Positions 48,595 through 60,966 of a stretch of 64,000 nucleotides of DNA are shown in pieces. This DNA comes from a virus. Made by a program: the position numbers and the translations under genes. The notes under the pieces are model-generated. The model worked only from the letters and a program-made list of their open reading frames with translations. It did no database searches and had not been told where the DNA came from. Each line of letters starts with the position of its first letter. Position 1 is the first letter of the stretch. The DNA lies in IMG/VR virus record IMGVR_UViG_3300044680_000048, positions 32,001 to 96,000 of that record; one strand, written 5' to 3'.

Positions 48595-50331
48595 ATGGTA
48601 CAGATAGACTATTCTAGGGATTCTTTATTGACCCGGTTTGCACTAGAGACTCTAAAGGATAGGTATCTATTACCAGGAGAAACACCTCAAGATGGGTTTG
48701 CTAGAGCAGCTTCAGCATATGCTGATGATGAAGACCACGCTCAGAGACTTTATGATTACGCTTCTAATTTGTGGTTTATGTTCTCTACGCCTATTTTGTC
48801 TAATGGTGGAACAGAAAGGGGATTAGGGATATCTTGTTATTTAAACCACATAGATGATTCCCGCAATGGAATAATTGAACATTGGAAGGAAAATACCTTT
48901 TTAGCCTCATTAGGTGGAGGTGTTGGAGCCTGTTGGGGGGATATAAGGTCTGATGGAACCGGAACAAGTAGTGGATCAGTTTCTACAGGTAGTATCCCCT
49001 TCCTCAAGACTGTAGATTCTCAATTCTTGGCAGTAGCACAGGGTAAGACCCGTAGAGGTTCCTACGCTGCTTACCAAAATATTGACCACCCAGAGATAGA
49101 AGAATTCATTACTATTAGAAAGACTACCGGTGGGGACTCTAATAGAAAGTGCCCTAATATCCATAATGCTGTAAATATCACAGATGAATTCATGGAATCA
49201 GTCATTGCGGGAAGAGATTGGAATTTAATTGATCCACATTCTAAGAAAGTAACTAAGACCTTAAAAGCCCGAGACTTATTCCGTCTTATCCTAGAAACTA
49301 GGATCTCTAAAGGGGAACCTTACATACACTTTATAGATACGGCTAATAAACACTTACCAGAGTCCCTTAAAGTATTAGGATTGAGGATAAATACTAGCAA
49401 CTTATGTCAAGAAGTTGAGCTTCCTACAAGTAAGGATCGTACAGCTGTATGTTGCCTCTCTTCTGTAAATCTAGAGAAGTATGATGAGTGGAAGGACCAT
49501 CTAACCTTTATTTCTGACTTGATAAAGATGCTGGATAATGTTATTGAAAATTTTATTCAAACTGCTCCACCAGAACTGTGGAGGGCAGTAGCCTCAGCCA
49601 AAGGAGAAAGGTCTTTAGGATTAGGAGCTATGGGGTTTCACTCTTATCTTCAGAAGTTAAATATTCCATTTGAGGGACCCCTGGCTTCGGGGATAAATAG
49701 AAAGATCTTTTCCCAATTGAAAGCCCAAGCAACAGAAGCTTCTAAAGAGTTGTATAATAAAAAAGGTCCGGCTGGTGATCTAAGAAATGAGAGAAATGCA
49801 CACCTTATGGCAATAGCCCCTAATGCTTCCAGCTCTATTATCTGTGGAGAAGCTAGCCCTTCTATTGAACCTTTCCGGGCTAATGCCTATACCCATAAGA
49901 CTCTTAGTGGTAGCTTCTACATTAAGAATAAGTATCTTCAACAAAGATTAGAAGAATTGGGGAAGAACACAGATGAGACTTGGACTTCAATTATAGGTAA
50001 TGGCGGAAGTGTCACCCATTTAGAGTTTTTATCTGATTGGGATAAAGAAGTATTTAAGACAGCTATTGAGATAGACCAGCATTGGATAATTCAACATGCT
50101 GCTGATAGGCAGGAGTATATATGTCAAGGCCAGTCTATTAATCTCTTTTTCTTAGCAAACACTAATGTTCAATATTTATATGATGTTCATATTGCAGCGT
50201 ATAAAAAGGGCATTAAGGGATTATACTACTTGAAGAGTGAGTCAATACAAAGACCAGACTTAATTTCTCAGCAGATTGAAAGGATTACTAGGAAAGAGAC
50301 GGAAGAAGATTGTTTTAGTTGCCAGGGGTAA
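48595..50331 (+). CDS. nrdA: ribonucleotide reductase class I alpha subunit, no ATP cone (578 aa from the ATG)
   Basis: The active-site motif is NTSNLCQEVELP. The Tyr pair is GLYYLKS. The C-terminal redox pair is CFSC. I prefer the ATG at 48595 over the TTG at 48565 used by the track. Confidence 0.85.
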   Translation: MVQIDYSRDSLLTRFALETLKDRYLLPGETPQDGFARAASAYADDEDHAQRLYDYASNLWFMFSTPILSNGGTERGLGISCYLNHIDDSRNGIIEHWKENTFLASLGGGVGACWGDIRSDGTGTSSGSVSTGSIPFLKTVDSQFLAVAQGKTRRGSYAAYQNIDHPEIEEFITIRKTTGGDSNRKCPNIHNAVNITDEFMESVIAGRDWNLIDPHSKKVTKTLKARDLFRLILETRISKGEPYIHFIDTANKHLPESLKVLGLRINTSNLCQEVELPTSKDRTAVCCLSSVNLEKYDEWKDHLTFISDLIKMLDNVIENFIQTAPPELWRAVASAKGERSLGLGAMGFHSYLQKLNIPFEGPLASGINRKIFSQLKAQATEASKELYNKKGPAGDLRNERNAHLMAIAPNASSSIICGEASPSIEPFRANAYTHKTLSGSFYIKNKYLQQRLEELGKNTDETWTSIIGNGGSVTHLEFLSDWDKEVFKTAIEIDQHWIIQHAADRQEYICQGQSINLFFLANTNVQYLYDVHIAAYKKGIKGLYYLKSESIQRPDLISQQIERITRKETEEDCFSCQG

Positions 50332-50334
50332 TAG

Positions 50335-51297
50335 ATGTCCTTATTAGAAACCCGTTCATATTTTAAACCATTCCAATATAATTGGGCTTTTGAAGCCTAC
50401 AATAAACAACAACAGATACATTGGCTGCCGGATGAAGTCCCTCTGGGTTCTGATATTTCAGATTGGAATACCGGAAAGTTGAGTAACTCAGAAAAAAACT
50501 TATTAACGCAACTATTTAGATTCTTTACCCAAGCTGATGTTAGTATTGCTGAAGGGTATATAGATAAATATTTACCAATATTTAGACCTCCAGAAGTTCG
50601 TATGATGCTTACTGCCTTTGCTAATATGGAATCCATACATATGCACGCCTACAGTAGACTTTTAGATTCCGTAGGAATGCCGGAAGTTGAGTATAGTAAG
50701 TTCCAAGAATATGAGGATATGAAGGCCAAACATGACTACTTGGATACCATTAAACCTTCTTCTTTAGAAGAGATAGCTGAGACCCTGGCTATTTATTCTG
50801 CTTTTGGGGAAGGGCTTCAATTATTCTCTTCTTTTGCCATTCTTTTAAACTTTTCTAGATTTAACAAAATGAAGGGAATGTCCCAGATAGTAACATATTC
50901 TGTACGTGATGAGACACTACATGTGGACTCTATGATTAAACTTTTCCACATCTTCTTAGATGAAAATCCTAAAATTTGGAAAAGTAATTTAAAGAAAAAG
51001 ATATATTTGGCCTGTCAGGATATGGTATTATTAGAGGATAAGTTTATTGATCTTGCTTTTGAACAAGGAGGAATTGAAGGCTTAGATAAGGAAGGCGTTA
51101 AAACGTACATTAGGTTTATTGCCGATAGGCGGTGTTTACAATTGGGACTTAAACCTGTGTATAAACAAAAGAAAAACCCGCTAGGTTGGCTGGACAATAT
51201 ACTAAATGCAGTAGAGTTAGCTAATTTCTTTGAAACAACATCATCGGAATACTCATCTGGAGCCTTAACAGGTTCATGGGAAGAACTTAAATGGTAA
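50335..51297 (+). CDS. nrdB: ribonucleotide reductase class I beta subunit (320 aa)
   Basis: The ferritin-like diiron ligand motifs MESIHMHAYS and RDETLHV are present. It lies directly after nrdA. Confidence 0.85.
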   Translation: MSLLETRSYFKPFQYNWAFEAYNKQQQIHWLPDEVPLGSDISDWNTGKLSNSEKNLLTQLFRFFTQADVSIAEGYIDKYLPIFRPPEVRMMLTAFANMESIHMHAYSRLLDSVGMPEVEYSKFQEYEDMKAKHDYLDTIKPSSLEEIAETLAIYSAFGEGLQLFSSFAILLNFSRFNKMKGMSQIVTYSVRDETLHVDSMIKLFHIFLDENPKIWKSNLKKKIYLACQDMVLLEDKFIDLAFEQGGIEGLDKEGVKTYIRFIADRRCLQLGLKPVYKQKKNPLGWLDNILNAVELANFFETTSSEYSSGALTGSWEELKW

Positions 51298-51833
51298 ATT
51301 TTTATAGTGAAATGAAAGAGTTGTATCCAGAACTCTATCAGAATGTCTATTGTGGATTCTCTTGCCCCAAAGGGTGGGAGAGTCTTATTAGAGACCTTTC
51401 CGCTAAGATTGCTTCACTTAATGCAGTTAGAGTGGCTCAAGTAAAAGAGAAATTTGGCTTCCTCCGGTACTACTTTGATCCATTAAGTGATGCCGGAATC
51501 CCCTTAGACAAGAGAACAACTTTATGGAAGAACTATAATAAAGCCAAAGAGTTAATTAAGGAAGCCGAGGAGGCTTCCCAAACTACGTGTCAAGAATGTG
51601 GAGAATATGGGGAACCTAGAAAGAGTTCTTGGGTATCAACTCTCTGTAATGACCACGCTAATGGTATGCCTAGTCATTGGGGACCAAGAGCTAAATGTAA
51701 ACTTTGTCAAACCGTAATCCAGAGTAAGTTTCAACATGACTTTAAGTACTGTGAATGCGGAGCCATTTTTGTAGATGGTGGAGGATCTTATACCAGATAT
51801 GGAGGGGAAATGGTGAATATAGAATGGCTTTAG
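51291..51833 (+). CDS. zinc-ribbon-containing hypothetical protein (180 aa)
   Basis: It has a KEKFGFLRYY segment, then CQECG...CNDH and CKLC...CECG cysteine pairs. Confidence 0.5.
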   Translation: MVNFYSEMKELYPELYQNVYCGFSCPKGWESLIRDLSAKIASLNAVRVAQVKEKFGFLRYYFDPLSDAGIPLDKRTTLWKNYNKAKELIKEAEEASQTTCQECGEYGEPRKSSWVSTLCNDHANGMPSHWGPRAKCKLCQTVIQSKFQHDFKYCECGAIFVDGGGSYTRYGGEMVNIEWL

Positions 51834-52321
51834 ATTTCCAAGCAGTGAGGTATAACACTGATCTAGTAAATACCTTCAACAAGGCGGCCTGTGAAATTGA
51901 CTCACTAGGAGCGTTAGCTTCCCTTTGCAATGATTATGATTTTGTAGAAGAAATGATGGATCAGGCAAAGAGTATATTAATGGGTGTGATGGAATCAACG
52001 ATTATTACTGATCCTGAAGAGAATGAGGGAGAAGAACAACAAATAGCTCCTGATGAGATAGTAGAAAAATCTCCAATTAGTATACTACCCACCCAGATAG
52101 AAGTTGATGGAGAAGATAATCAACTTCGGGCCATCATGTATAATGATGGAGTTCCTTGGGCTTTAACGGAATGGGTTCCCTTTGAGCCTAATATAGATGT
52201 TACTTATTCTATTTCCTCTGCTCTTAGACTAATGGCGGAAGTCCTAGAAAGAAAATACGACCTTTCTCAATTACCAAAGGCAGAAGATAATGCTCAAGAC
52301 CCTGATCCGAATTGTAATTAA
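51824..52321 (+). CDS. acidic hypothetical protein (165 aa from the ATG at 51824)
   Basis: I chose the internal ATG because it minimises overlap with the upstream gene. Confidence 0.45.
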   Translation: MALDFQAVRYNTDLVNTFNKAACEIDSLGALASLCNDYDFVEEMMDQAKSILMGVMESTIITDPEENEGEEQQIAPDEIVEKSPISILPTQIEVDGEDNQLRAIMYNDGVPWALTEWVPFEPNIDVTYSISSALRLMAEVLERKYDLSQLPKAEDNAQDPDPNCN

Positions 52322-52379
52322 GATATTTGTTCAAGTAGTAGCTAATATTATAGTAGGCCTAAGTTTAGAAATGATATAA

Positions 52380-52655
52380 GTGGGAAAGCCTAAGAAGAAA
52401 CCACCTCCAACTAAAGATCAGAAGAGGATAGACTTCTCTCAAACTTGGACTGAGTACAAGATTAAAGGCCAGTATTTTGAAAGAATCCCTGTAGGAGAGG
52501 AAACATTTAATATAGAAATAGAAGACAATAGATGTTTTCTATGTTATGCTGAGGTAACGATGCTCCACCAACTTGGTTGTGAGGCAGAGTGCTCAGCATT
52601 TTCTGGAAGAAGTGTTTGGCTAGATGAAGAAGAAGCTTATGAGGATGATGAATGA
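52380..52655 (+). CDS. hypothetical protein (91 aa)
   Basis: GTG start, a basic N-terminus and an acidic C-terminus. Confidence 0.4.
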   Translation: MGKPKKKPPPTKDQKRIDFSQTWTEYKIKGQYFERIPVGEETFNIEIEDNRCFLCYAEVTMLHQLGCEAECSAFSGRSVWLDEEEAYEDDE

Positions 52656-52867
52656 ATTTTTACCAGACAAAGTTACCGGCAGATCCCTCTGTCACTTTAT
52701 ATATTAGACAGGGCCCGAAGACTAACAGTAGATATGCTCTTGCGGCACATACTAATACACCTATTAAGGGTAAAGAGGATTCCCTCAAGCCTTGTCAAGC
52801 TTCCCTATATCTAGGATATTATGAGACCTTTGCGGAAGCCTTAGTGGAATTACGAAAATTACTGTAA
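52652..52867 (+). CDS. hypothetical protein (71 aa)
   Basis: 4-nt overlap with the upstream gene. Confidence 0.45.
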   Translation: MNFYQTKLPADPSVTLYIRQGPKTNSRYALAAHTNTPIKGKEDSLKPCQASLYLGYYETFAEALVELRKLL

Positions 52868-52882
52868 ATTGGAGATGATGAA

Positions 52883-53131
52883 ATGGGAAATAAAGGCACA
52901 GCTGATATTGGAATCAAGGGTAAGATAGAAGCAATATTCTTTAATCTATTCCCGAAAGGTAAAGTAATGAATAAGGAAGAGATTAATAAACTCGTAAACA
53001 CTAAGATTAAGGCTACTCCCAAGACTGTTAATGGAGTACTGGTTGACCTTATACAAGAGGGAAAACTCAAAGTAGCTCAACATGAATCTGGAAGAAGATT
53101 ATTTGAAGTTCTTGCCGGAGATAAGAAATGA
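52883..53131 (+). CDS. small possible winged-helix DNA-binding protein (82 aa)
   Basis: The KTVNGVLVDLIQEGKL segment resembles a recognition helix plus wing. The start may instead be the internal MNKEE. This call is weak. Confidence 0.35.
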   Translation: MGNKGTADIGIKGKIEAIFFNLFPKGKVMNKEEINKLVNTKIKATPKTVNGVLVDLIQEGKLKVAQHESGRRLFEVLAGDKK

Positions 53132-53730
53132 TAACTATCTTAGGAGCTGGGGGCTTTGCTAAAGAAGTTCTAGCTCTTCTAAAGTTCAACAACTCCTCCA
53201 TTTTTGAATACAGGATGGTAGTAGAACCTTTTGGTAATTATATGACCGATAGGTTTTATTATATGGGAGTAGGAGATCCCTACTTAAGGTACAAGTTTTA
53301 TAATCACTTTAGGGCTAAACATAGCAATTTTAACCCCTTAATCTCTAATGATTTAATCTGTGATGACGAGACAGTAAGCTTTGGGGAAGGAACTATAGTC
53401 TGCCAAAACTGTGTAATAACCACAGATGTTCAGGTAGGAAAGTTTTCTATCATCAATATTTCTAGTACTGTAGGGCATGATGCTAGGATAGGAGACTTTG
53501 TAACTATAGCTCCAGCTTGTAATATTCTTGGTTTTGCAGAAGTAGGGGACTTTACTGAACTAGGGGCTAACGTAACAGTTCTTCCTAAAGTCAGGATTGG
53601 AAAGCACTGTATGATAGGTGCTGGAACACTAGTTACAAAAGATGTTCCGGACTATTCTCTTGTATATGGAGTTCCGGGAAAAGTTATTAAAGAATATAGA
53701 AAGGATAAGAGATATGAGTCAACAAACTAA
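53128..53730 (+). CDS. hexapeptide-repeat sugar N/O-acetyltransferase, NeuD/PglD-like (200 aa)
   Basis: It has an N-terminal ILGAGGFAKEV Rossmann-like start and a C-terminal left-handed beta-helix repeat pattern (IGDFVTIAPACNILG, VGDFTELGANVTV, IGKHCMIGAGTLV). Confidence 0.7.
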   Translation: MITILGAGGFAKEVLALLKFNNSSIFEYRMVVEPFGNYMTDRFYYMGVGDPYLRYKFYNHFRAKHSNFNPLISNDLICDDETVSFGEGTIVCQNCVITTDVQVGKFSIINISSTVGHDARIGDFVTIAPACNILGFAEVGDFTELGANVTVLPKVRIGKHCMIGAGTLVTKDVPDYSLVYGVPGKVIKEYRKDKRYESTN

Positions 53731-54013
53731 TAACAATAGGGAGTTTAGAGATTTTTGTAATTTCTGGCAAAAGTATGATATTTACGCTAGAGATAAGTTG
53801 GATGCTCTATTGACTCTAGCTTTAAAGGCTGAGCAGGAAGAAGAAAAACAACTAATAGACCAATACGAGGATTATCTAGAGACTCTTTGTCCTGAAGATA
53901 AGGAACTTGCTATTTCTATAACAGAGTATAAGAACCAAGAATTTGAAATGTGTTTCAGCAATCAACAGATGGAAAATGCTTATGGGTTTCTGAGGCTTAT
54001 CCGGAATGCCTAA
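53714..54013 (+). CDS. hypothetical protein (99 aa from the ATG at 53714)
   Basis: I prefer the internal ATG. The protein is helical and acidic. Confidence 0.45.
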   Translation: MSQQTNNNREFRDFCNFWQKYDIYARDKLDALLTLALKAEQEEEKQLIDQYEDYLETLCPEDKELAISITEYKNQEFEMCFSNQQMENAYGFLRLIRNA

Positions 54014-54737
54014 ATCCATATCTGTCTGTGCCTGGACATATAATCAAGAAAACTTTGTGAAACCTATGATGGAAAGTGTACTCCATCAGAAGAGTTCAAA
54101 TTTTCATTTAATCATAGCTGATGATTGCAGTACAGATGGAACGCCTGTTCATATAGAAAATTATTCTCACATTTATAAGGGGTTATTGACTTTAGTTCAG
54201 CCCGAAAAGAATATAGGAGCAGCTTCCGATTTCTGTATCTCTAAAGCTCCTAAGGTTGATTACATAGCCTTTATGGATGGGGATGATCAATGGCTTCCGG
54301 AAAAGCTAGAAAAGTCTATTGCTTTCCTAGAAGAAAACAACTATGATATGGTATGTACTGATGTAATGAGTATTAATCCTGCCGGAGAACATTTGGGAAG
54401 AGCACTAGACTGGATGAATCTTCCCCAAACTCTTACTATAAAAGAGCTTTCAGTGGATAACAGAATCTATACCTCTACAGTAGTAGCCAAGATGGGCATT
54501 ATTCTAAAGTCTCCTGGCTTTCTTGGGTTTGGGTATAAGGTTCTCTTAGACTATCCGTTATTTCTATGGCTTGCGGCAAGATATAAAATTGGATACCTCA
54601 ATGAAGCCCTTACCTATAAGATGCAGAATACCAATTCTGTCCTTCATCATTCTAATACCAAAGATATAGGAATTTGGGAGTATGGACACCAGAAGATGAA
54701 CATGGCTCAAATAATAAGTACAACGGGAAGAAAATGA
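54006..54737 (+). CDS. family 2 glycosyltransferase (243 aa)
   Basis: ISVCAWTYNQENFV...LIIADDCSTDGT and the DxD-type FMDGDDQW are canonical GT-A/GT2 signatures. Confidence 0.75.
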   Translation: MPKSISVCAWTYNQENFVKPMMESVLHQKSSNFHLIIADDCSTDGTPVHIENYSHIYKGLLTLVQPEKNIGAASDFCISKAPKVDYIAFMDGDDQWLPEKLEKSIAFLEENNYDMVCTDVMSINPAGEHLGRALDWMNLPQTLTIKELSVDNRIYTSTVVAKMGIILKSPGFLGFGYKVLLDYPLFLWLAARYKIGYLNEALTYKMQNTNSVLHHSNTKDIGIWEYGHQKMNMAQIISTTGRK

Positions 54738-55405
54738 TCCAAATCTATGGACTAGCCTACAGAAGACCGGATTATCTTGAGAAGTGTATTGAAAGTCTTT
54801 TTATAAATAGGTCTGAGCCAGTTGAGATAAATGTAGCTGAAAGTAAAAGTCCTGTTTCCCTCAGACCTCTATTAGAAGGTTATGTTAAAGGGGGACAAAT
54901 TAAACGGGCTTGTATCTTTGAAGAGAATGTAGCTTCTTGGGGCTTACAGAAGATGATTGAGGATTTCCCTCCTCAAGATAAGTTTTTTATAATGACGGAT
55001 TTAGACCTTATTGTTCCCACAGGATGTGATTATCTTGGTATAATAAGGGAGGCTCAAGAACGAAATGTCTTAACCGGATGCACTCTTAGTCTGGAAAACT
55101 ATGTTCCGCCCAATTGGGGCTATGGGGGAGATGCTGATGGTTTTGGTGGGTGGTTGATGAGTCTCCGGACAGATATTTGGAAACAATATCCTGCTGGATG
55201 TCCTATTGCGGATGCTTGGATTATAGAGTTCTTCAAACACTTTGGACTGGTAGAGAAACTTTTAGATATCAGACTTTACCATTTAGCTTGGGATTTATGG
55301 AAGGACGATCCGGAATACCTCGAACACAAAATTCAGAACCATGCAGCAATCTTTAATAATGGAAACCGTCCAGTTAATTTAAACTATGAGTTGATAGAAA
55401 GATGA
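54734..55405 (+). CDS. GT-A-like glycosyltransferase candidate (223 aa)
   Basis: The YGLAYRRPDYLEKCIESL start and the IMTDLDLIV segment (DxD-like) support the call. ATGA overlap with the upstream gene. Confidence 0.4.
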   Translation: MIQIYGLAYRRPDYLEKCIESLFINRSEPVEINVAESKSPVSLRPLLEGYVKGGQIKRACIFEENVASWGLQKMIEDFPPQDKFFIMTDLDLIVPTGCDYLGIIREAQERNVLTGCTLSLENYVPPNWGYGGDADGFGGWLMSLRTDIWKQYPAGCPIADAWIIEFFKHFGLVEKLLDIRLYHLAWDLWKDDPEYLEHKIQNHAAIFNNGNRPVNLNYELIER

Positions 55406-56427
55406 CCTACTATGTCGGAAAACCTAATGTCTGTAATCCGGAAGGGATGATAGAGTACGTTTATAAAGTACTCCGTTCCGGAAAACTTACTAATAACGGG
55501 GAACAAGTAGAAGCTTTTGAATACGAATTTGCTAATAAGCATAAGTTTAAATATGCAGTAGCGGTATCCAATGCTACAGTAGGATTACAATTATGCCTTT
55601 CCGGATACCCTAATGGAAGAATAGGACTTCCAGCATTTAGCTTTATAGCCACATTAAATGCAGTTAAGAATAGCAAACTTCTGCCAGACTTCTATGATGT
55701 AGATGAGAACATGGCTATTAACAATTCTGAATCTAGATTGACTTTGCCAGTAAACCTATTCGGGTCCTGTGTTCCCGAAAAGTTTAACGGGAAGAATGTA
55801 GCTGTATATGATTCAGCCCATTGTACTGGAATGGATGTAACTCACCTTAAGGGTGCTCCTCATGTATTCTCCCTTCATGCAACTAAATTAGTAAATAGTT
55901 GTGAGGGAGGGATGATCTGTACTGATAATAAATTCTTAGCTGATTATTTAAAGGCTGCTAGAAACTTCGGATTTGACCCCAATTCTGAAGCTCCGGAAGG
56001 GGAAATTCTGGATATAGATGGCGGAACTAATGCCAAAATGAGTGAAGTTCATGCGGCAATAGGAAGATTTAATCTTGCCTCAGTAGGGGAAATCATTGAA
56101 TATAATAAGCAAATCTTCAAATGGTATGAAGAATTCTTACCGGAAGTTAATTTATTCATCCCACCGGAAAGTTCAAATTTTAGCTACATAGTAATGAATT
56201 TTCAGCCAGAGGTGCGGGAAAGACTTTACACCTCTCTAAGAGTAATGGGAGTAATGGTTCGTAAATACTTCGCCTACACACTTCCAAAAGTAGCTAAGAT
56301 TAAGGGGGATTTCCCCATGGCGGAAAGATTCTCCCAAACTAATCTAGCTTTTCCTACGGGAATGGAACTAAAACGGGAAGACATAGAACACATATGTAAA
56401 CTTACTAGAGGATTTATAAATGATTAA
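55402..56427 (+). CDS. DegT/DnrJ/EryC1-type PLP-dependent sugar aminotransferase (341 aa)
   Basis: FSLHATKLVNSCEGGMI contains the PLP-binding lysine in its typical context. The AVSNATVGL segment is also present. Confidence 0.7.
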   Translation: MTYYVGKPNVCNPEGMIEYVYKVLRSGKLTNNGEQVEAFEYEFANKHKFKYAVAVSNATVGLQLCLSGYPNGRIGLPAFSFIATLNAVKNSKLLPDFYDVDENMAINNSESRLTLPVNLFGSCVPEKFNGKNVAVYDSAHCTGMDVTHLKGAPHVFSLHATKLVNSCEGGMICTDNKFLADYLKAARNFGFDPNSEAPEGEILDIDGGTNAKMSEVHAAIGRFNLASVGEIIEYNKQIFKWYEEFLPEVNLFIPPESSNFSYIVMNFQPEVRERLYTSLRVMGVMVRKYFAYTLPKVAKIKGDFPMAERFSQTNLAFPTGMELKREDIEHICKLTRGFIND

Positions 56428-56980
56428 GATTAACTTGGGATGTGGACCAGATGTTAGACCGGGCTGGATTAGTGTGGATTTTCCACCAACACATGCGGGA
56501 CAAGTTCATCCAGATGTAGTACAATGGGACCTCTCTAAAGGAGTTCCAGATTCAATTGAACCAGAATCTGTAGACTTAGCTATGTCTAGTCATTTTTTAG
56601 AACATTTGGATGACAAAGACGGAAGAATATTTCTTATTAGTGTTTTGAATTCTTTAAAGAAAGGTGGAAAACTTCGTCTATGTTTGCCGGATGCCTTCAG
56701 AACCTGTAAGAATTACGTAGAGGGGAATTGGGATTTCTTCAATCCAGTCAGTGGATTTATAGGAGATCATTATCCAGAAACCAGAACTCTAATTGATTAT
56801 CTGACTCTCTGCGTTTATCAGGCAGGTGAACACAAGTCAGTCTGGGACGCCAAAAAGGCTATTAGAGTATTAGAAAATCTAGGATTTTCTAATGTTTATG
56901 AGTCACAATTTGACCCAACTATAGACTTGAATGAGCCTATCCGGATCATGTATAGTATATATGTAGAGGCTGTTAAATGA
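56420..56980 (+). CDS. class I SAM-dependent methyltransferase (186 aa)
   Basis: INLGCGPDVRPGWISVD is motif I. The protein is too small and lacks the motifs expected of a DNA C5-methyltransferase. Confidence 0.55.
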   Translation: MIKINLGCGPDVRPGWISVDFPPTHAGQVHPDVVQWDLSKGVPDSIEPESVDLAMSSHFLEHLDDKDGRIFLISVLNSLKKGGKLRLCLPDAFRTCKNYVEGNWDFFNPVSGFIGDHYPETRTLIDYLTLCVYQAGEHKSVWDAKKAIRVLENLGFSNVYESQFDPTIDLNEPIRIMYSIYVEAVK

Positions 56981-57183
56981 ACTTTGAGATCACTGAAGAA
57001 CAATTAGAGAAGCTCAGACCTTGGCTGGAAGAACAAGATGAACTTTGTAAACACCAAACCCATGGAGCTGTTGGCGGAGGTACTACTTTTGAATTTACTC
57101 CTACTAGCTTAGGGGTAATAGTAAAGGTTTTTAGTGGCTGTTCCGGAAATGTATTAGATATTACTGATTACGAAAACTGGTAG
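56977..57183 (+). CDS. hypothetical protein (68 aa)
   Basis: 4-nt overlap with the upstream gene. Confidence 0.45.
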   Translation: MNFEITEEQLEKLRPWLEEQDELCKHQTHGAVGGGTTFEFTPTSLGVIVKVFSGCSGNVLDITDYENW

Positions 57184-57187
57184 TCAA

Positions 57188-57853
57188 ATGTTATATAACA
57201 CTACTTGGAAATTTACTAAGGTTATAGACCCTCCTACACAAGAGGAGATTTATAACTGCCCTCATTACTTTGGGATGAGTTATGAACAAGTAAGAGATTC
57301 CGGTCCTCCTGAATTCCTTATGAAATTGTTAGACCAGTTCCCGTTTGATGGAAGAAAGACTATACTACAGATACGTCCTCAAGACTTCCGGAATGGTCCT
57401 ATTGGTATAGATGGTATAGAGTGGCATTCAGATTACAATGTAAGACTACTTGACGGGAAGCATTATGCTAAAGATCATGATGAATTCCACCTTATGGTTA
57501 TATCTTGGGGGTATGGACCCAAGACTGAATTTCTAACTACTCCCATGCATCTACCTAACAATTTAGTTGATTATGATAAGTGGAAATCAGAATTTGAACT
57601 TAGATGTAGATTTTCTACTCTAAATGTAGTTCAAGCTCCTAAAAACCAGATGGTGGAGTATAAGTCTTCTGATTTACATAAAGCCGGGAGCTGGAAACAT
57701 GGAGACGGTCCAGGCTTTAGATTGATGGTCGTAGGGTTTGATACCTCCTACATTGATGGAAACATTAGAATACTTCCTTCTATAAGGGAAAATGACAGAG
57801 AAGATGGAATTCCTCTTTGGAAAGAAACTGAAGAACGTAAGCCAAGCCTATAA
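57188..57853 (+). CDS. hypothetical protein with HxD...H pattern, possible Fe(II)/2OG dioxygenase (221 aa)
   Basis: EWHSD is followed about 80 aa later by DLHKAG and FRLMVV, which is compatible with a facial-triad cupin. This is a motif-spacing argument only. Confidence 0.3.
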   Translation: MLYNTTWKFTKVIDPPTQEEIYNCPHYFGMSYEQVRDSGPPEFLMKLLDQFPFDGRKTILQIRPQDFRNGPIGIDGIEWHSDYNVRLLDGKHYAKDHDEFHLMVISWGYGPKTEFLTTPMHLPNNLVDYDKWKSEFELRCRFSTLNVVQAPKNQMVEYKSSDLHKAGSWKHGDGPGFRLMVVGFDTSYIDGNIRILPSIRENDREDGIPLWKETEERKPSL

Positions 57854-57968
57854 TGCCCTAAGGAAACTCTTGCGGGAAATAGAATTAACAACCTCTTGTC
57901 CGAAGACCAAGAAAGTAATTGAAGAATACTTTAAACCTAATAGTATGAGAAAATATGATAATGAATAA
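57792..57968 (+). CDS. small hypothetical protein (58 aa, below the track cutoff)
   Basis: Hand translation gives MTEKMEFLFGKKLKNVSQAYNALRKLLREIELTTSCPKTKKVIEEYFKPNSMRKYDNE. It overlaps the upstream gene's 3' end by 62 nt. Confidence 0.25.
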   Translation: MTEKMEFLFGKKLKNVSQAYNALRKLLREIELTTSCPKTKKVIEEYFKPNSMRKYDNE

Positions 57969-57985
57969 AGGAGGGATGTTACAAA

Positions 57986-58100
57986 ATGAATATATTCTTC
58001 ACTAGTGACACACACTTTTCATCATTATAACTCTATTGAATATTGTAATCGCCCATATTCTTATGAAGAAGTGGAGGAGTTAATTAGACAAAATGTTTGA
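57986..58100 (+). pseudogene. remnant of a metallophosphoesterase gene (N-terminal ~38 codons, frameshifted and truncated)
   Basis: An AAGGAGGG box precedes the start. MNIFFTSDTHF runs into a stop after a T4 run. Shifting by +1 gives HHYNSIEYCNRPYSYEEVEELIRQNV, the typical start of DxH-type phosphoesterases. The frame then ends inside the RNA ligase start. Confidence 0.55.
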
Positions 58101-59316
58101 AATGACTTTAGACGAAATATTAAATACTACTCCAGCCTTAGCTCAAGTAGTAGAAATTAAAGACGCAATTAAAACACCAGGTTCGGATAGGTTAACCTCA
58201 TATTCTCTCAAAGGAATGGGTTGGACAGTAATATCTTCTAATATCAACCAGACAGAAGAAAATTTTGGGGAACCAAGGTATAAACCGAGCGATAAAGTTA
58301 TCTATATTGCCATTGACAGTATTCTTCCGGAAAAGCTTGAAAGGTTACTCTTCCCTGAAGGTAGTAAGATTACTCTCAGTGGAGGAAGAATTAAGACTCT
58401 CAAACTTAGAGGGGCTTACTCTCAAGGAATGTTGATAAACCTGTCTGATTTCTCTAAGGTAGTAACCGATGGAGATTATGATCTAAAGCCAGGTAGGGAT
58501 GTGACTAAGGCTTTGGGAATAACTAAATTTGAACCTCCGGTATCCTCTATTCCTAAACATATGCGTGGTCAACAGAGTAAGAAAAATCCTTTATTTAAAG
58601 AGTATACAGATGTCAGACACCTTAAATACTATACAGAATCCAATATATTTGAGTTTGGAGAGTTAGTCTATGTGACAGCTAAACTTCATGGGACTTCAGC
58701 TAGATATGCATTATTACCTACTTATTGTCCAAATCTTCCCAGACTATGTTTTGGAAATTTGAAGGAGTATGGAAGCTTAATCATAAAACATGTTAAGAAA
58801 TTCTTTGGTTTCTTACCAGAATATGAATATTGTTTTGGCTCCCGCCGTTGTCAATTACAAGATAAACCGAAAGACCATAAAACCTTTTATGAGGATAATG
58901 TCTATAGGACTGTAGGAGAAGCTTATGGATTTAAGAAAATTCTCCAACCGGGAGAAGAACTCTTTGGGGAAATAGCAGGACCTGGAATCCAGAAAGGTTA
59001 TGATTACAACTTCAAAGAACATAAATTCTTCGCTTATGATGTCATGATCAATGGTCAATTCTTAGATTCTGAGAACTTTAAGAACTGGTGTGATGCTAGA
59101 GAAGTACCAAGGGTGTCGGAACTAGGAGTAATTCCTTATGATTTAGATGAGTTGACCAAACTAGCTTCTGCTAAAACATGCCTCAACGGGCAAAAGACAA
59201 GAGAAGGAGTTGTAGTTAAAAAGGTTGTGGAACAGAATCATCCAAGTTGTGGAAGAGTTTGCTTCAAACTTATAAATCCAGAATACTTACTTAAAGACCA
59301 GTCTGATTTCCACTAA
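58093..59316 (+). CDS. ATP-dependent RNA ligase, nucleotidyltransferase superfamily with an N-terminal OB-like domain (407 aa)
   Basis: Motif I is VTAKLHGTS (KxHG). Motif III is ELFGEIAGPGIQ. Motif IV is FFAYDV. Motif V is REGVVVKK. The pattern fits DraRnl/NgrRnl-type ligases as I recall them. Confidence 0.55.
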   Translation: MFEMTLDEILNTTPALAQVVEIKDAIKTPGSDRLTSYSLKGMGWTVISSNINQTEENFGEPRYKPSDKVIYIAIDSILPEKLERLLFPEGSKITLSGGRIKTLKLRGAYSQGMLINLSDFSKVVTDGDYDLKPGRDVTKALGITKFEPPVSSIPKHMRGQQSKKNPLFKEYTDVRHLKYYTESNIFEFGELVYVTAKLHGTSARYALLPTYCPNLPRLCFGNLKEYGSLIIKHVKKFFGFLPEYEYCFGSRRCQLQDKPKDHKTFYEDNVYRTVGEAYGFKKILQPGEELFGEIAGPGIQKGYDYNFKEHKFFAYDVMINGQFLDSENFKNWCDAREVPRVSELGVIPYDLDELTKLASAKTCLNGQKTREGVVVKKVVEQNHPSCGRVCFKLINPEYLLKDQSDFH

Positions 59317-59329
59317 AAGAGAAATAATA

Positions 59330-59581
59330 ATGAATGAAGAACAAAGAGCTGGAGCTTTTGACCGTTACGGGAAACTAAGAAATTGGACCTATCGCCGTGA
59401 AGACGGTATGTTAATAGATCTCTGTTCAGCGTTACGAGAAGCTTTAGAAAAGAACCCTAGTTTGAGATTAGGGCAATTCTTAGTCAACCTCTTCCCAGAT
59501 TATGAGGGAGAAGACTTCTCTAATAGGCTTTTTAATGTTTTTGATGAAGAGTTTCTACAAAGAATCACAGAGAAATCATGA
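59330..59581 (+). CDS. hypothetical protein (83 aa)
   Basis: Co-oriented ORF after the ligase. Confidence 0.5.
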   Translation: MNEEQRAGAFDRYGKLRNWTYRREDGMLIDLCSALREALEKNPSLRLGQFLVNLFPDYEGEDFSNRLFNVFDEEFLQRITEKS

Positions 59582-59882
59582 AATATAAATTATTCTTGGC
59601 ATAGGTCACACCTTGAATTAATATGGGGTGTTTTTGCTCAAAAGTTCTTGAGTCAACTAGGTTCTTGATTTTGTAGTTCTTGTCTATCTTTTCCCCATCA
59701 GAGGTTAGATAAGTATAGATGGTTATCTTATTGACTTGTTCTTTAACATAGCCGGAACGAGTTCTAATCATATTCTTTTCTTCTATAATATGACTATCGG
59801 CAAGAGTAGTAATAACAGTTCCGGCAAAGGCCGGAGAAACCATCAAGAAAGTAGCTAGTATTGCCGGAAGAATCTTATACAT
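59565..59882 (-). CDS. secreted or membrane-anchored protein (105 aa)
   Basis: The N-terminal signal-like segment is MYKILPAILATFLMVSPAFAG. The gene has opposite orientation inside a rightward block. Confidence 0.5.
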   Translation of the reverse strand: MYKILPAILATFLMVSPAFAGTVITTLADSHIIEEKNMIRTRSGYVKEQVNKITIYTYLTSDGEKIDKNYKIKNLVDSRTFEQKHPILIQGVTYAKNNLYFMISL

Positions 59883-59937
59883 ACCAAAAAGTCTAGCAAT
59901 TACTTACTAGACTTAGAAGGCGGAGGGAGGAAAAGGA

Positions 59938-60147
59938 CTATTGGGTGAGAGTATTAATCTTACCGGTGGCATTATACGTATTTGTTACGGTTGTTTGATC
60001 ATTTTGTAAGGCTGTAATAAGATTGGAATATTGTGAATTTAGGTCAGTGTAGTTGTTGTTGAGCAAGTCACCCTTCATAACTGTCAAGATTTGCTCTACT
60101 TGAAGTTGGAGATTAGCCAAAATATTTGTTCCAGTTCCGCCTGCCAT
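59938..60147 (-). CDS. hypothetical protein (69 aa from the internal ATG)
   Basis: I truncated the track ORF to MAGGTGTNILANLQ... so that it does not overlap the rightward promoter and gene. Confidence 0.35.
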   Translation of the reverse strand: MAGGTGTNILANLQLQVEQILTVMKGDLLNNNYTDLNSQYSNLITALQNDQTTVTNTYNATGKINTLTQ

Positions 60148-60148
60148 G

Positions 60149-60157
60149 TGGTATAAT
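60149..60157 (+). promoter_or_regulatory. extended -10 promoter TGGTATAAT
   Basis: The box is identical to the one upstream of the tRNA. It lies 34 nt upstream of the ATG at 60191. Confidence 0.45.
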
Positions 60158-60190
60158 ATCCTTAGAAGTTTTACAGTAGAGATTTTAGCA

Positions 60191-60403
60191 ATGAAAGTTA
60201 TCTTTGAAAATAGTATGAAAAACCCCTTCCAGTTCAAATATCCCCTAGTAAAGGTAGTCCGGAGAGACAGTGAAGACGGAGGATTTACAGAATCCTTCTT
60301 AGTCAATCCGGAAACAGCAGATACAAGAGTTAATCACGGAACTCTTCTACATAGTAATATACTAGAATTTGCCCTATTAGAACTAACCAAAGGGAAAGAA
60401 TAA
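60191..60403 (+). CDS. hypothetical protein (70 aa from the ATG at 60191)
   Basis: I prefer the internal ATG. The stop overlaps the dcd start. Confidence 0.45.
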   Translation: MKVIFENSMKNPFQFKYPLVKVVRRDSEDGGFTESFLVNPETADTRVNHGTLLHSNILEFALLELTKGKE

Positions 60404-60954
60404 TGATCTTAACTGATTGGGAGATTAGAAAAGCCATAGAAGATGGAGATATAGGAGTTGACCCTTTTGATGAGTCCTTAATTAATCCGGCAAGCCTTGA
60501 TATAAGGCTTGGAGATATGTTTTCATTAACGGAAGCCCAGAAAACTCAAGGAAAACGTAGAGAACCCTATGTAGACCCTATGGATAAAGAGAGTTTTAAT
60601 ACCCTTACATTCAAGGTCACAAAAGATTATTACCTTCCTCCAAGACGGGCAGTTTTAGCCTCAATGATGGAGAAAACTGTCCTTTCAGATAATATTTCTG
60701 TAAAGCTTTTCGGAAAGAGTTCTCTGGCTCGTTTGGGACTGATGAATTCCCCAGACGCTTGTTGGGTAGATTGTGGCTGGGTGGGCCAACTTACCATGGA
60801 GCTGTTCAACAGTTCAGACTTTGCCATAAGACTTGTTCCGGGAATGAAAATAGGACAGCTGGTCTTTTTTAAACATAAGAGGGCAAGTAAGCCCTACAAC
60901 TTAACGGGAAGATATTCAAACCAAGTACCCGGAATGGGCTCTCTTGGAATATAA
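60403..60954 (+). CDS. dcd: dCTP deaminase (183 aa)
   Basis: MILTDWEIRKAIEDGDIGVDPFDESLINPASLDIRLG is the canonical Dcd/dUTPase-superfamily N-terminus. The size is typical. Confidence 0.8.
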   Translation: MILTDWEIRKAIEDGDIGVDPFDESLINPASLDIRLGDMFSLTEAQKTQGKRREPYVDPMDKESFNTLTFKVTKDYYLPPRRAVLASMMEKTVLSDNISVKLFGKSSLARLGLMNSPDACWVDCGWVGQLTMELFNSSDFAIRLVPGMKIGQLVFFKHKRASKPYNLTGRYSNQVPGMGSLGI

Positions 60955-60966
60955 GGAGTAAAGTAG

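Follow-up and report, generated by a model that had tools for sequence, protein, structure and literature searches.

Eight co-directional genes on the plus strand fill positions 53128–57853 of the window, by which we mean the whole 64-kb stretch of viral DNA that was analyzed. Neighbouring genes overlap by 4–17 nt or are separated by a gap of 4 nt, and all eight ORFs of the rightward cluster proposed in a first-pass annotation were recovered at these coordinates. They were designated A to H:

A, 53128–53730, plus strand, 200 aa, predicted N-acetyltransferase
B, 53714–54013, plus strand, 99 aa, acidic ORF
C, 54006–54737, plus strand, 243 aa, GT2 glycosyltransferase
D, 54734–55405, plus strand, 223 aa, putative GT-A-fold glycosyltransferase
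E, 55402–56427, plus strand, 341 aa, putative sugar aminotransferase
F, 56420–56980, plus strand, 186 aa, probable methyltransferase
G, 56977–57183, plus strand, 68 aa, acidic ORF
H, 57188–57853, plus strand, 221 aa, putative oxygenase-like protein

Six of the eight genes (A, C, D, E, F and H) encode enzymes; the other two are small ORFs. The cluster is flanked by ribonucleotide reductase on one side and RNA ligase on the other and thus lies in the replication/nucleotide-metabolism arm, away from the structural genes. Gene packing 5′ of A is as tight as within the cluster. All products are soluble and acidic (net charge −6 for H, −4 for C, −10 for D and −9 for B). A Pfam search of the eight products detected no flippase, polymerase, initiating phosphoglycosyltransferase or oligosaccharyltransferase. 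The earlier gene-by-gene annotation proved essentially correct, including its second GT-A-like protein and possible Fe(II)/2OG dioxygenase.

A matched Hexapep in Pfam (6e-15) and the NeuD/PglB/VioB model TIGR03570 in NCBIfam (9e-45; 152.7 bits, slightly short of the 160.8 cut-off). Its best solved relatives are VioB (7txp, 9e-25) and PerB (4ea7, 4e-19), with PglD also near. The histidine of a GHD motif in A aligns with the conserved histidine of VioB (SHG) and PerB (DHD), and by comparison with PerB and PglD we take it to be the catalytic base. A is predicted to be a left-handed β-helix N-acetyltransferase of the NeuD/PglD/VioB/PerB class, with an NDP-4-amino-4,6-dideoxyhexose as substrate. 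E matched the DegT family (PF01041, 1e-43), and its best NCBIfam model was DesI (TIGR04427, 1.6e-45), with a score of 155.9 bits, far under the equivalog cut-off of 650. Similarity to the DesI structure 2po3 extends over residues 4–336 (3e-31), PseC and LegC come next in likeness, and the match to the C3 enzyme QdtB is far weaker (3e-14). The lysine of SLHATK in E aligns with that of SFHATK in DesI and is presumably the PLP lysine. The nearest database relatives of E are only 40% identical and reside on phage contigs. E appears to be a DegT-family PLP-dependent sugar aminotransferase, most like the C4 enzymes for NDP-4-keto-6-deoxyhexoses.

A and E each independently indicate C4 chemistry on a 4-keto-6-deoxyhexose, although at ~35% identity neither C4 versus C3 regiochemistry nor the nucleotide carrier can be fixed. 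The first-pass annotation had proposed an acetamido-dideoxy-sugar route of either FdtABC/QdtABC or PglDE type. Since E is nearer to C4 aminotransferases and A to 4-amino-sugar enzymes, a VioA/VioB-like or PglE/PglD-like route fits better than an FdtABC/QdtABC-like one (3e-31 to DesI versus 3e-14 to QdtB). The VioA/VioB-like or PglE/PglD-like route requires no isomerase.

A tblastn search with the dehydratases of relatives and a six-frame scan for signature motifs detected neither an SDR 4,6-dehydratase nor an RmlA-type nucleotidyltransferase in the window, in agreement with the earlier remark that the activating enzyme and the 4,6-dehydratase are missing from it. One further gene had been linked to the pathway:

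17068–17493, minus strand, small cupin, possible FdtA/QdtA-like sugar 3,4-ketoisomerase

The cupin gene is present and carries a KGFHLH motif. Its match to Pfam FdtA is sub-threshold (0.0025; 18.1 bits versus a cut-off of 23), Cupin_2 is also matched, and its best four PDB sequence matches are all WxcM/QdtA ketoisomerases with E-values of 0.04–0.56. It lies 36 kb from the cluster on the opposite strand and has no clear homology to an RmlC-like cupin found in a related locus (L026, see below). We consider it a weak FdtA/QdtA look-alike by sequence and an uncertain pathway member.

C is a soluble GT2 (GT-A fold) glycosyltransferase (PF00535, 6e-28) in which no hydrophobic segment was found. Because the GT2 model starts at residue 6 of the 243-aa reading, a 223-aa call of the gene would lose the first strand. 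TuaG and EpsE are the closest NCBIfam models, and TarS (3e-10), TarP (1e-8) and GalT1 the closest solved relatives; identity to the GT2 proteins adjoining D homologues in L015 and L016 is 36–41%. By sequence, D matched only GT2 in Pfam (0.0038). It has an ATG start with a Shine-Dalgarno-like GGGAAG, all its homologues begin with MI(H/K/Q)xYG, and a TDLDL (DxD) motif is invariant. An AlphaFold model of D (pLDDT 71) gave 282 Foldseek matches at E ≤ 1e-3; the best 50 of these are almost all GT-A glycosyltransferases, GDP-mannose pyrophosphorylases being the exceptions, and the matches listed include PcManGT (5e-7), TarS, WrtF, RmlT, GtrB, TarP and SpsA. Judged from the model, D is probably a GT-A-fold glycosyltransferase, and a rare one, with only three word-sharing homologues among 5.8e9 proteins.

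H has no Pfam match. Its AlphaFold model is a double-stranded β-helix (pLDDT 91.4), and residues H80-x-D82, H164 and R178 and an RPQDFR motif are invariant across 33 homologues. Foldseek matches to the PDB are weak (E about 1e-3, TM 0.3–0.46); the best 50 are nearly all 2OG oxygenases, with KdoO, HygX, PolD, KanJ and prolyl hydroxylases among those listed, while the top match, YjgK, is not one. Matches in BFVD are viral 2OG oxygenases as well as uncharacterized proteins of jumbo phages and giant viruses. The confident fold, together with the invariant HxD…H…R, suggests that H is 2OG/Fe(II)-oxygenase-like. H founds a small family, so far seen only on phage-like and metagenomic contigs; a search of 1.84e9 proteins gave only 31 cluster representatives at E ≤ 1e-3, and a peptide-pattern scan of 185,579 genomes of bacterial and archaeal species, which detects fairly close relatives only, found no member.

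F matched Methyltransf_23, _11 and _12 at about 1e-3, assignments that agree mutually and are all under their Pfam cut-offs, and an INLGCG near its N-terminus fits motif I. It is probably a class I SAM-dependent methyltransferase and a candidate sugar O-methyltransferase. B, which has an alternative 123-aa reading from 53642 that would overlap A by 89 nt, gave no match above noise in family-profile searches; the sole match of G was phrog_26220 (function unknown, 3.5e-6). Neither ORF has a homologue in related loci by tblastn, and they are not conserved with the module.

As comparison with related loci revealed, the cluster is a mosaic: each of its two modules is also found in other uncultivated phages. 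One, the pair of acetyltransferase and oxygenase (A, H), is present in jumbo-phage sugar cassettes, which also carry several glycosyltransferases, SDR 4,6-dehydratases and a sugar C-methyltransferase. Eight jumbo-type loci were examined, and in every one an H homologue lies directly 5′ of the gene for a NeuD-like acetyltransferase, with identities to the window proteins of 62% for H and 33% for A. In L013 the H homologue is ~4 kb from a DegT gene, and in the window H forms the 3′ end of the cluster. The other module, composed of two glycosyltransferases, a methyltransferase, an aminotransferase and an acetyltransferase, is found in phages that share the capsid type, having an SU10-type capsid protein as here or homologues of window ORFs 12555–15862. 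The C–D pair is kept in L015, L016, L026 and L034, with F nearby. D often adjoins an aminotransferase or acetyltransferase gene, directly so (E and/or A) in L029, L031 and L032. L017 and L019 both carry C, D, E and F in a stretch of about 7 kb, L019 with A in addition, and L026 combines A, C, D and F with an RmlC-like dTDP-sugar epimerase (PF00908, 7e-10). F homologues accompany C/D or E genes in five loci (L015, 3e-30; L017, L019, L026 and L034). A PhyH-type 2OG oxygenase unrelated to H is located directly 5′ of C–D in L015 and L026; with H beside A in jumbo phages, this places an oxygenase in the module. In L017, L019 and L026 the A/C/D/E/F homologues lie between the capsid gene and homologues of window ORFs 12555–15862, which have no family annotation and, from their position, would be morphogenesis-arm genes. 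The genes themselves, their family and fold assignments, the alignment of conserved residues with known catalytic ones and the conservation of the modules across phages are direct observations.

The six enzymes probably synthesize an amino-deoxy-sugar bearing acetyl and methyl groups and transfer it to a target of some kind. DNA had been named as one target, with, speculatively, an excess of CCGG as the trace of motif-specific modification. H would then hydroxylate a base post-replication, as TET/JBP 5-methylpyrimidine dioxygenases do, and C and D would add a methylated amino-sugar glycan to the new hydroxyl, possibly at CCGG-related sites. Phage 5mYOX pathways are found together with sugar epimerases, O-methyltransferases and GT-A glycosyltransferases and include many dioxygenases without TET/JBP annotation (PMC13229309). 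TarP, the best PDB match of GT-A-fold phage DNA glycosyltransferases (bioRxiv 10.1101/2023.12.21.572611), is also among the best for C and D, and DNA-glycosylating phages can carry their own nucleotide-sugar genes (PMC13326640). The location in the DNA-metabolism arm, the 2OG oxygenase repeatedly adjoining the glycosyltransferase pair and a C5-cytosine methyltransferase 4 kb from the C/D/F genes of L015 point the same way. The CCGG excess is genuine (3.5-fold; 278 sites in the window versus 79 ± 8 expected from dinucleotide-preserving shuffles). However, across 20 related loci the enrichment does not follow the cluster, being missing in all H-bearing jumbo loci and most D-bearing loci. H has no PF12851 match, no TET/JBP protein is among its best 50 structural matches listed (PDB, BFVD), and the proteins nearest to it in structure hydroxylate small molecules, sugars and proteins. 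In L015 and L026 its place is taken by a PhyH-type oxygenase, and enzymes of that family are not known to act on DNA bases. Neither a C5-methyltransferase motif nor a motif-detectable (ThyX-type) thymidylate synthase was found in the window, neither family is among the genes with Pfam annotation between about 47 and 70 kb, and a Dam-type N6-adenine enzyme was the sole DNA methyltransferase to be detected. The acidity of all cluster proteins and the morphogenesis-arm position of the relatives' genes also argue against DNA, as does the avoidance of many 4-bp palindromes (GGCC 0.36, CGCG 0.35, TGCA 0.61, GTAC 0.64), which suggests DNA still open to restriction. DNA as a target thus finds no support and is, in our view, highly improbable.

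It is unlikely, too, that the cluster decorates a lipid-linked or polymer acceptor of the host (O-antigen, capsule or teichoic acid) during infection, diverting host nucleotide sugars, a decoration that might block superinfection or keep progeny off cell debris. This possibility arises because soluble TuaG/EpsE/TarS-type GT2 enzymes normally use lipid-linked or teichoic-acid acceptors; TarP, a prophage enzyme, decorates wall teichoic acid. The closest characterized relatives of C (TuaG, EpsE, WcaA, TarS and TarP) work on envelope polymers, its nearest phage families are labelled 'GtrB-like O-antigen conversion' in PHROGs, TarS, RmlT, GtrB and WrtF are structural neighbours of D, and the LPS Kdo hydroxylase KdoO is among the best solved neighbours of H. 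Yet neither membrane proteins or transmembrane segments nor a flippase or GtrA/GtrC partners occur in the cluster, its homologues in three related phages sit within the morphogenesis arm rather than a moron/lysogeny region, no integrase was noticed among those window genes that were annotated, and the H family was not found in the bacterial and archaeal genomes covered by the peptide-pattern scan. Cooperation might also be limited to A, C, D and E, with H and possibly F, B and G being unrelated neighbours, H for example a host-protein oxygenase. B and G lack counterparts in related loci, L017 and L019 have no H despite C, D, E and F (and A in L019), the unequal identities of H and A to their jumbo-phage homologues imply differing histories, and the equally tight packing 5′ of A means that packing alone defines no operon. 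Nevertheless, linkage of H or a homologue to amino-sugar genes is seen in three different arrangements (jumbo-type loci, L013 and the window), a non-homologous 2OG oxygenase takes the place beside C–D in two further phages, and F homologues travel with the module in five loci, so we hold such a division to be quite unlikely.

The target is most likely the phage's own particle proteins rather than its DNA, and we give an even chance to the full reading of the cluster as a glycan-tailoring and glycan-transfer module with a 4-acetamido-4,6-dideoxyhexose pathway and virion proteins as acceptor. What we infer is which sugar is made, in what order the steps occur, what H does and which acceptor is used. 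The precursor would be an NDP-4-keto-6-deoxyhexose, most likely dTDP-4-keto-6-deoxy-D-glucose supplied by host RmlA/RmlB or, alternatively, by phage genes in the 48 kb of genome beyond the window. E would transaminate it at C4, and A would N-acetylate the product to an NDP-4-acetamido-4,6-dideoxyhexose of Vio4NAc/Qui4NAc type. C and D would pass the amino sugar and a second sugar to the acceptor in the cytoplasm, direct transfer being the simplest route for soluble products without membrane export genes; D, which lies directly beside aminotransferase or acetyltransferase genes in other phages, is the better candidate for amino-sugar transfer. F may O-methylate the sugar, and H may hydroxylate the glycan or an acceptor residue.

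Capsid and tail glycosylation occurs in mycobacteriophages. By analogy with it and with the 2-O-methyl-Vio4NAc of Mimivirus fibrils, the acceptor would be one or more virion proteins, a choice suggested by gene neighbourhood and analogy. The closest precedent is the Mimivirus set that decorates virion fibrils (R132 methyltransferase, L136 aminotransferase, L142 acetyltransferase-glycosyltransferase and several GT2s; PMC10117803), whose composition matches that of the cluster. The earlier proposal of a virion-protein target gains support from the morphogenesis-arm homologues in L017, L019 and L026 and from a mucin-like ORF in the window:

26498–30838, minus strand, 1446-aa ORF of the morphogenesis arm with mucin-like Ser/Thr repeats

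Serine and threonine make up 31% of this protein overall, with repeated tracts such as TSTTATSTTTPSTT and TSSTTNPTTTP, and we speculate that it is a candidate glycan acceptor.

The first-pass annotation had described a run of eight plus-strand ORFs between 53128 and 57853, and all eight were found there. They are referred to below as A to H:

from 53128, plus strand: A, acetyltransferase
53714-54013, plus strand: B, small ORF (99 aa)
from 54006, plus strand: C, GT2 glycosyltransferase
from 54734, plus strand: D, GT-A-like protein
between D and F, plus strand: E, aminotransferase
56420-56980, plus strand: F, methyltransferase-like protein
between F and H, plus strand: G, small ORF (68 aa)
57188-57853, plus strand: H, oxygenase-like protein (221 aa)

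Neighbouring genes overlap by 4-17 nt or sit 4 nt apart. The start of B was fixed by comparison of homologues, which gave the 99-aa reading. The GT2 model aligns from residue 6 of C, which put the start of that gene at 54006, and the ATG at 54734 was chosen for D since every D homologue begins with MI(H/K/Q)xYG. Gene calls for the same eight genes are present in loci L006 and L014, which are 100% identical to the window over 47188-64000; they were therefore taken as a second assembly and not as independent evidence. A scan for promoters and terminators over 51-60.5 kb gave counts equal to the shuffled expectation, so operon boundaries could not be defined. The stop of a basic 82-aa ORF (52883-53131, plus strand) overlaps the start of A; this ORF has a weak winged-helix match (PF22194, 6e-4) and could encode a regulator of the downstream genes. 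All eight cluster products are acidic, and no hydrophobic segment was found in any of them (maximum 19-residue Kyte-Doolittle mean 1.38). B and G gave no informative matches and have no counterparts in any related locus.

The cluster lies in a plus-strand arm that also encodes a family A DNA polymerase, both ribonucleotide reductase subunits, an RNA ligase, a dCTP deaminase-like protein, an amidase and RecA. The minus-strand arm (45-36363) encodes an SU10-type major capsid protein, the portal and the large terminase; Pfam and PHROGs scans gave no annotation for the ORFs at 45-15862. The large terminase ORF (33649-36363, minus strand) is unusually long (904 aa), with terminase matches at 6-341 and 579-819, suggesting an insertion or an extra domain. 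A nucleotide search with the cluster against 50,697 phage records produced no match, nor did tblastn of H against phages, while E matched phages only at 29% identity or less and the DNA polymerase only distantly, at 28% or less. Judging by these searches, the phage is without a cultured relative.

The A product contains the hexapeptide repeats of a left-handed β-helix (PF00132, 6.3e-15, above the cut-off). It matched TIGR03570 at 9e-45 with 152.7 bits, under the cut-off of 160.8, with only profile positions 59-202 aligned; the match to PglD_N had an E-value of 0.016. The best solved relatives of A are VioB (9e-25), then PerB, and its segment VGHDARIG lines up with VDHDCRLG of PerB (4ea7) and with the corresponding stretch of VioB (7txp), which also contains a His. 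We take the aligned His to be the catalytic base in this acetyltransferase class. A is a predicted left-handed β-helix acetyltransferase of the NeuD/PglD/VioB class. E, a DegT-family PLP aminotransferase, matched PF01041 at 1e-43 (150.1 bits against a cut-off of 19.8). DesI, a C4 aminotransferase, provided both the best model (TIGR04427, 1.6e-45) and the best structure (3e-31), and SLHATK of E aligns with SFHATK of DesI, its lysine presumably being the PLP-binding one. Although TIGR04427 is its best-scoring model, the score of 155.9 bits is under the equivalog cut-off of 650, and by sequence E is not an orthologue of DesI or VioA. In a comparison with VioA/VioB (dTDP-viosamine synthase and its N-acetyltransferase), DesI and PglE/PglD, enzymes from the O-antigen and protein-glycosylation pathways of bacteria, E was closest to DesI and A to VioB, PerB and PglD; the PLP lysine and the His were aligned, identity was about 30-35%, and the N-terminal domain of A was shortened. 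We infer both the regiochemistry of E and its nucleotide carrier. A and E both indicate C4 chemistry, and the product would thus be a 4-acetamido-4,6-dideoxyhexose of the Vio4NAc or Qui4NAc type.

The first-pass annotation had proposed an FdtABC/QdtABC-like or PglDE-like route and had pointed to a small cupin at 17068-17493 (minus strand), 36 kb from the cluster. An FdtABC/QdtABC route, which leads to a 3-acetamido-3,6-dideoxyhexose, needs a 3,4-ketoisomerase. The cupin is real, but its match to FdtA is sub-threshold (18.1 bits against 23) and those to QdtA/WxcM have E-values of 0.04-0.56. A and E fit C4 enzymes better: the C3 enzyme QdtB scored only 3e-14 against E, and QdtC 1.9e-9 against A, with C4 enzymes scoring far better. 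Homology of the cupin with the RmlC-like cupin of locus L026 was unconvincing (E 0.006 over 72 residues). Adjoining the cupin, and set among otherwise minus-strand morphogenesis genes, is a plus-strand gene for S-adenosylmethionine decarboxylase (16691-17071; PF02675, 1.3e-18), a polyamine-synthesis enzyme. The statement that the activating enzyme and the 4,6-dehydratase are missing from the window was borne out, as neither a nucleotidyltransferase nor a 4,6-dehydratase was detected there by tblastn and motif search. Since no dehydratase was seen in the window, the precursor NDP-4-keto-6-deoxyhexose would probably be drawn from the host dTDP-rhamnose pathway.

C is clearly a GT2 enzyme by its predicted sequence features: it matched PF00535 at 6e-28 (98.2 bits against a cut-off of 23.3) and, as regards the DxD motif, contains ADDCSTD and MDGDD. 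The nearest relatives are TuaG and EpsE by model, and TarS and TarP by solved structure. The PHROG families nearest to C are labelled as Gtr-type O-antigen seroconversion; no membrane-anchored GtrB, GtrA flippase, GtrC or membrane partner was found among the cluster proteins. D matched PF00535 below the cut-off (0.0038, 17.6 bits against 23.3) and had no sequence match in PDB; only three word-sharing homologues were found in 5.8e9 proteins. A Foldseek search with the AlphaFold model of D (pLDDT 71) yielded 282 matches at E<=1e-3; of the 50 listed, almost all were GT-A glycosyltransferases. The TDLDL segment, containing a DxD motif, is invariant in 6 homologues, and D is modelled as a GT-A-fold glycosyltransferase with a conserved DxD. 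F gave mutually consistent matches to the class I SAM methyltransferase families Methyltransf_23, _11 and _12 (18.9, 19.4 and 18.7 bits), all under the cut-offs, and none in PDB; its N-terminus contains LGCG, resembling motif I.

The H product matched no Pfam or NCBIfam family. Its AlphaFold model is a double-stranded β-helix (pLDDT 91.4), and the 50 PDB matches listed by Foldseek are nearly all 2OG/Fe(II) oxygenases, with E-values of about 1e-3 and TM scores of 0.3-0.46. They include KdoO, HygX, PolD, KanJ, prolyl hydroxylases and halogenases. Residues H80-x-D82, H164 and R178 are invariant in 33 sequences and lie in the model on or beside strands 84-87, 164-166 and 177-186; they correspond to the HxD/E...H metal triad and the basic 2OG-binding residue of 2OG/Fe(II) oxygenases. 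H shares with the sugar-acting enzymes KdoO, KanJ, HygX and PolD a predicted double-stranded β-helix with HxD...H...R and a carbohydrate-pathway setting, although TM is only 0.3-0.46, there is no sequence-level relationship, and the H family is very small. Among viral models (BFVD) the matches were uncharacterised proteins of jumbo phages and giant viruses and annotated viral 2OG oxygenases. No PF12851 (TET/JBP) match to H was found at E<=0.1, and no TET/JBP protein was among the 50 matches listed in PDB or BFVD. The sole match in a PDB profile search, NanoRNase C (E 0.016), was judged spurious. At E<=1e-3 the family comprises 31 cluster representatives among 1.84e9 proteins, and a pattern scan of 185,579 species genomes found no relative. 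Members have been seen only on phage-like and metagenomic contigs, the phage contigs spanning 51-473 kb.

Compared with related phage and metagenomic loci, the cluster appears to be a mosaic of two recurring phage modules. In eight jumbo-type loci (L001, L004, L007-L012) H always lies directly 5' of a NeuD-like acetyltransferase gene, in some cases overlapping it, inside a sugar cassette of 10-15 genes (at about 6-19 kb in each locus). These cassettes contain a large methyltransferase fusion, 2-5 paralogous 270-300-aa proteins, GT2 and Glyco_trans_1_2 glycosyltransferases and a DegT aminotransferase. They also have one or two SDR 4,6-dehydratase/epimerases and further methyltransferases, among them a sugar C-methyltransferase. 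The window has in common with them H (59-62% identity), A (33%) and, weakly, E, and nothing else; no significant match to a cassette protein emerged from phmmer searches with B, C, D, F and G. A ~101-aa ORF following the jumbo acetyltransferase gene shows no homology to B, so its similar position is probably coincidental. The paralogous 270-300-aa proteins belong to no Pfam family and carry GxGD near the N-terminus and QQDCLIM near the C-terminus; we suspect that they are GT9-like glycosyltransferases. A methyltransferase of these cassettes is fused to a putative GT-A-like C-terminal domain, and neighbouring genes encode, among others, Thg1, Acb5, NUDIX and DnaJ proteins.

The other module is found in further loci. 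C and D lie side by side in L015, L016, L026 and L034, and in all of these but L016 an F homologue is close by; in L029, L031 and L032, D directly adjoins E, A or both. Phage contigs of 95-140 kb carry the relatives nearest to E (40% identity); on them E-F, C-D and A are found within about 7 kb, A being detected in L019 only. Homologues of ORFs 12555-15862 flank these modules, joined in L019 by an SU10-type capsid gene. L026 is a 121-kb contig, and its capsid protein shares 38% identity with that of the window; its gene order is capsid, A, a PhyH oxygenase, C, D, an RmlC-like dTDP-sugar epimerase and F, followed by homologues of 14855-15862 and then 12555-13478. By these gene orders, the phages that compare best with this one have the module within their morphogenesis arm. 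A PhyH-type 2OG oxygenase gene is located directly upstream of C-D in both L015 and L026. H and the PhyH protein of L015 are unrelated at the sequence level (hhalign probability 0.2); as both occur beside sugar genes, an oxygenase drawn from different families appears to be a recurrent component.

In the pathway that we propose, C and D would transfer the sugars, F would methylate, and H would oxidise the glycan or the acceptor. For the acceptor, the first-pass annotation had named two targets, virion proteins and DNA. The placement of the module in the morphogenesis arm of relatives favours the former, while for DNA hypermodification no TET/JBP signal was found in H and no C5-methyltransferase motif among the window ORFs. 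We regard a virion protein as the acceptor with evenly divided confidence. It is favoured because the cluster proteins are soluble and are accompanied by no lipid-carrier, flippase or oligosaccharyltransferase machinery, because phage particles assemble in the cytoplasm, and because of the location of the module in relatives. A speculative candidate acceptor is the product of a 1446-aa ORF (26498-30838, minus strand) with 31% Ser+Thr and repeat units of roughly 85-90 aa with mucin-like tracts (TSTTATSTTTPSTT). Its sole match is phrog_9625, itself without an assigned function, and it may be a fibre or decoration protein. Just downstream of it in the morphogenesis arm is a gene for a patatin-like phospholipase (25222-26061, minus strand; PF01734, 8.5e-30).

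Modification of the host envelope would fit the GT2 relatives TuaG, EpsE, TarS and TarP, which act on envelope polymers, and the presence of KdoO among the neighbours of H. Since the cluster is devoid of membrane partners and its genomic placement in relatives points elsewhere, we consider this unlikely. That H, F, B and G are merely unrelated neighbours, so that the cluster is not one unit, seems rather improbable, for H, and separately PhyH and F, are repeatedly associated with these sugar genes; for B and G themselves, such a status is likely. Hypermodification of DNA has recent precedents and in principle must be taken seriously. Phage 5mYOX (TET/JBP) clusters combine a 2OG oxygenase, matched in the window by the oxygenase-like H, with GT-A glycosyltransferases and sugar-tailoring genes, O-methyltransferases and sugar epimerases among those co-occurring with the dioxygenases (bioRxiv 10.1101/2023.12.21.572611; PMC13229309; PMC8256090). 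TarP, a structural neighbour of the window's glycosyltransferases, is also the best PDB match of DNA-acting GT-A enzymes (bioRxiv 10.1101/2023.12.21.572611), and DNA-glycosylating phages can carry nucleotide-sugar genes (PMC13326640). However, neither its sequence nor its ranked fold matches make H TET/JBP-like, relatives have a PhyH-type oxygenase in its stead, and the cluster proteins are acidic. No C5-methyltransferase motif was found among the window ORFs, no C5-methyltransferase or thymidylate-synthase Pfam family among annotated genes from about 47-70 kb, and no DNA-modification family among annotated genes up to about 70.1 kb to the right. The sole DNA methyltransferase detected in the window is of the Dam type (19764-20246, plus strand; N6-adenine, PF05869, 1.1e-23). 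Several 4-bp palindromes are strongly avoided, which suggests that the DNA is exposed. We consider DNA improbable as the target, and the tempting link to hypermodification is currently without support.

Next to the capsid gene (20761-21954), a 724-aa protein is encoded (21965-24139, minus strand) in which a DUF6582 domain (3.8e-17) and, weakly, a ParB-like nuclease segment were recognised. Some thymine dioxygenases of phages are activated by ParB-like proteins (PMC13229309); nothing was found that ties this one to H.

A more specific scheme, to which we assign little probability, has the oxygenase (H, or PhyH in L015 and L026) leave the sugar alone and hydroxylate the acceptor, thereby making the attachment point; C and D would then build a methylated 4-acetamido-4,6-dideoxyhexose glycan on the new hydroxyl. 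If this is true and the acceptor is a nucleobase, it would be a new DNA hypermodification, made with a dioxygenase family unrelated to TET/JBP and bearing an amino sugar as yet unreported from DNA. With a protein residue as the acceptor, it would amount to collagen-like or Skp1-like hydroxylation followed by glycosylation in a bacteriophage.

Mycobacteriophage capsid and tail-tube proteins are reportedly O-glycosylated by phage glycosyltransferases (Freeman and colleagues, 2023, as cited in PMC12619734). By analogy, soluble phage glycosyltransferases, presumed cytoplasmic, would act on virion proteins in both cases. To our knowledge, the mycobacteriophage systems have not been described with an amino-sugar tailoring pathway or an oxygenase, and a few mycobacteriophages are the only tailed phages in which experiments have demonstrated virion glycosylation. 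Where viruses are known to encode elaborate amino-sugar pathways, they are mainly giant viruses that infect eukaryotes. The Mimivirus cluster consists of the R132 methyltransferase, L136 aminotransferase, R141 4,6-dehydratase, L142 N-acetyltransferase-glycosyltransferase and GT2 enzymes L137-L140, and its product, 2-O-methyl-Vio4NAc, is put on the virion fibrils (PMC10117803). Both it and the window cluster are virus-encoded and soluble and comprise a DegT C4 aminotransferase, a β-helix N-acetyltransferase, a class I methyltransferase (a probable one in the window) and GT2-type enzymes; the Mimivirus acceptor is a virion surface protein. In contrast, no 4,6-dehydratase was found in the window, the sequences are distant, the window adds the 2OG-oxygenase-like H, and the host of this tailed phage is bacterial. 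Mimivirus uses UDP-sugars, whereas the DesI-like, dTDP affinities of the window enzymes suggest dTDP-sugars. The flagellin 'Vio island' of Pseudomonas syringae, the bacterial counterpart of the Mimivirus cluster (PMC10117803), has the same enzyme set as the window cluster.

Neither the enzymology nor the existence of glycan clusters in viruses is novel. The new elements are a compact module, putatively of Vio4NAc type, that circulates among uncultivated tailed phages, its repeated pairing with 2OG oxygenases or oxygenase-like proteins from two unrelated families, and two unannotated families, H (oxygenase-like) and D (GT-A), that are biochemically testable. Taken together, the window and roughly 30 related loci suggest that a compact set of an aminotransferase, an acetyltransferase, a methyltransferase and two GT-A enzymes circulates among uncultivated phages of about 100-470 kb. 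If the acceptor is on the virion, glycans on phage surfaces would be commoner and of greater chemical variety than is assumed, which would bear on how hosts are recognised, on particle stability and on immune recognition during phage therapy.

The first-pass annotation had also, speculatively, linked the cluster to an excess of CCGG. The excess itself is strong: 278 sites (for example 134-137 and 166-169) were counted in the window against 79 +/- 8 expected from dinucleotide shuffles, a 3.5-fold enrichment, or 2.9-fold over mononucleotide expectation. CpG as a whole occurs at half its expected frequency (observed/expected 0.50), most NCGN contexts apart from CCGG are at 0.17-0.5, and 23% of the window CpGs fall inside CCGG. 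The tetramer is at expectation (1.07) once the counts of the trinucleotides CCG and CGG are taken into account. CCGG sites are present in all three codon frames, and 23 of the 29 CCG proline codons in plus-strand genes are followed by G (in-frame CCGG), which argues for a constraint at the DNA level. Enrichment was 2.9 in the window, 6.5 in L016 and 2.2 in L019; it was absent (0-1.2) from L020-L029, including L026, from L031 and from all H-bearing jumbo loci. The excess is thus missing from most loci with cluster genes, and because it does not track the cluster the proposed link was rejected. The CCGG signal is therefore a lineage or host feature not tied to the cluster; it merits its own study.

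Further genes were noted in the related loci. A C5-cytosine DNA methyltransferase gene (L015 6769-7452; motifs FSGIG, PCQDIS and ENVPAL) lies on a short contig 4 kb from PhyH-D-C-F, and a probable ThyX N-terminus (L016 4396-4596) is at the end of another short contig. Genes of the fatty-acid desaturase family PF00487 (L017 2218-2961, L019 1-64) are located about 7-9 kb from the sugar genes.
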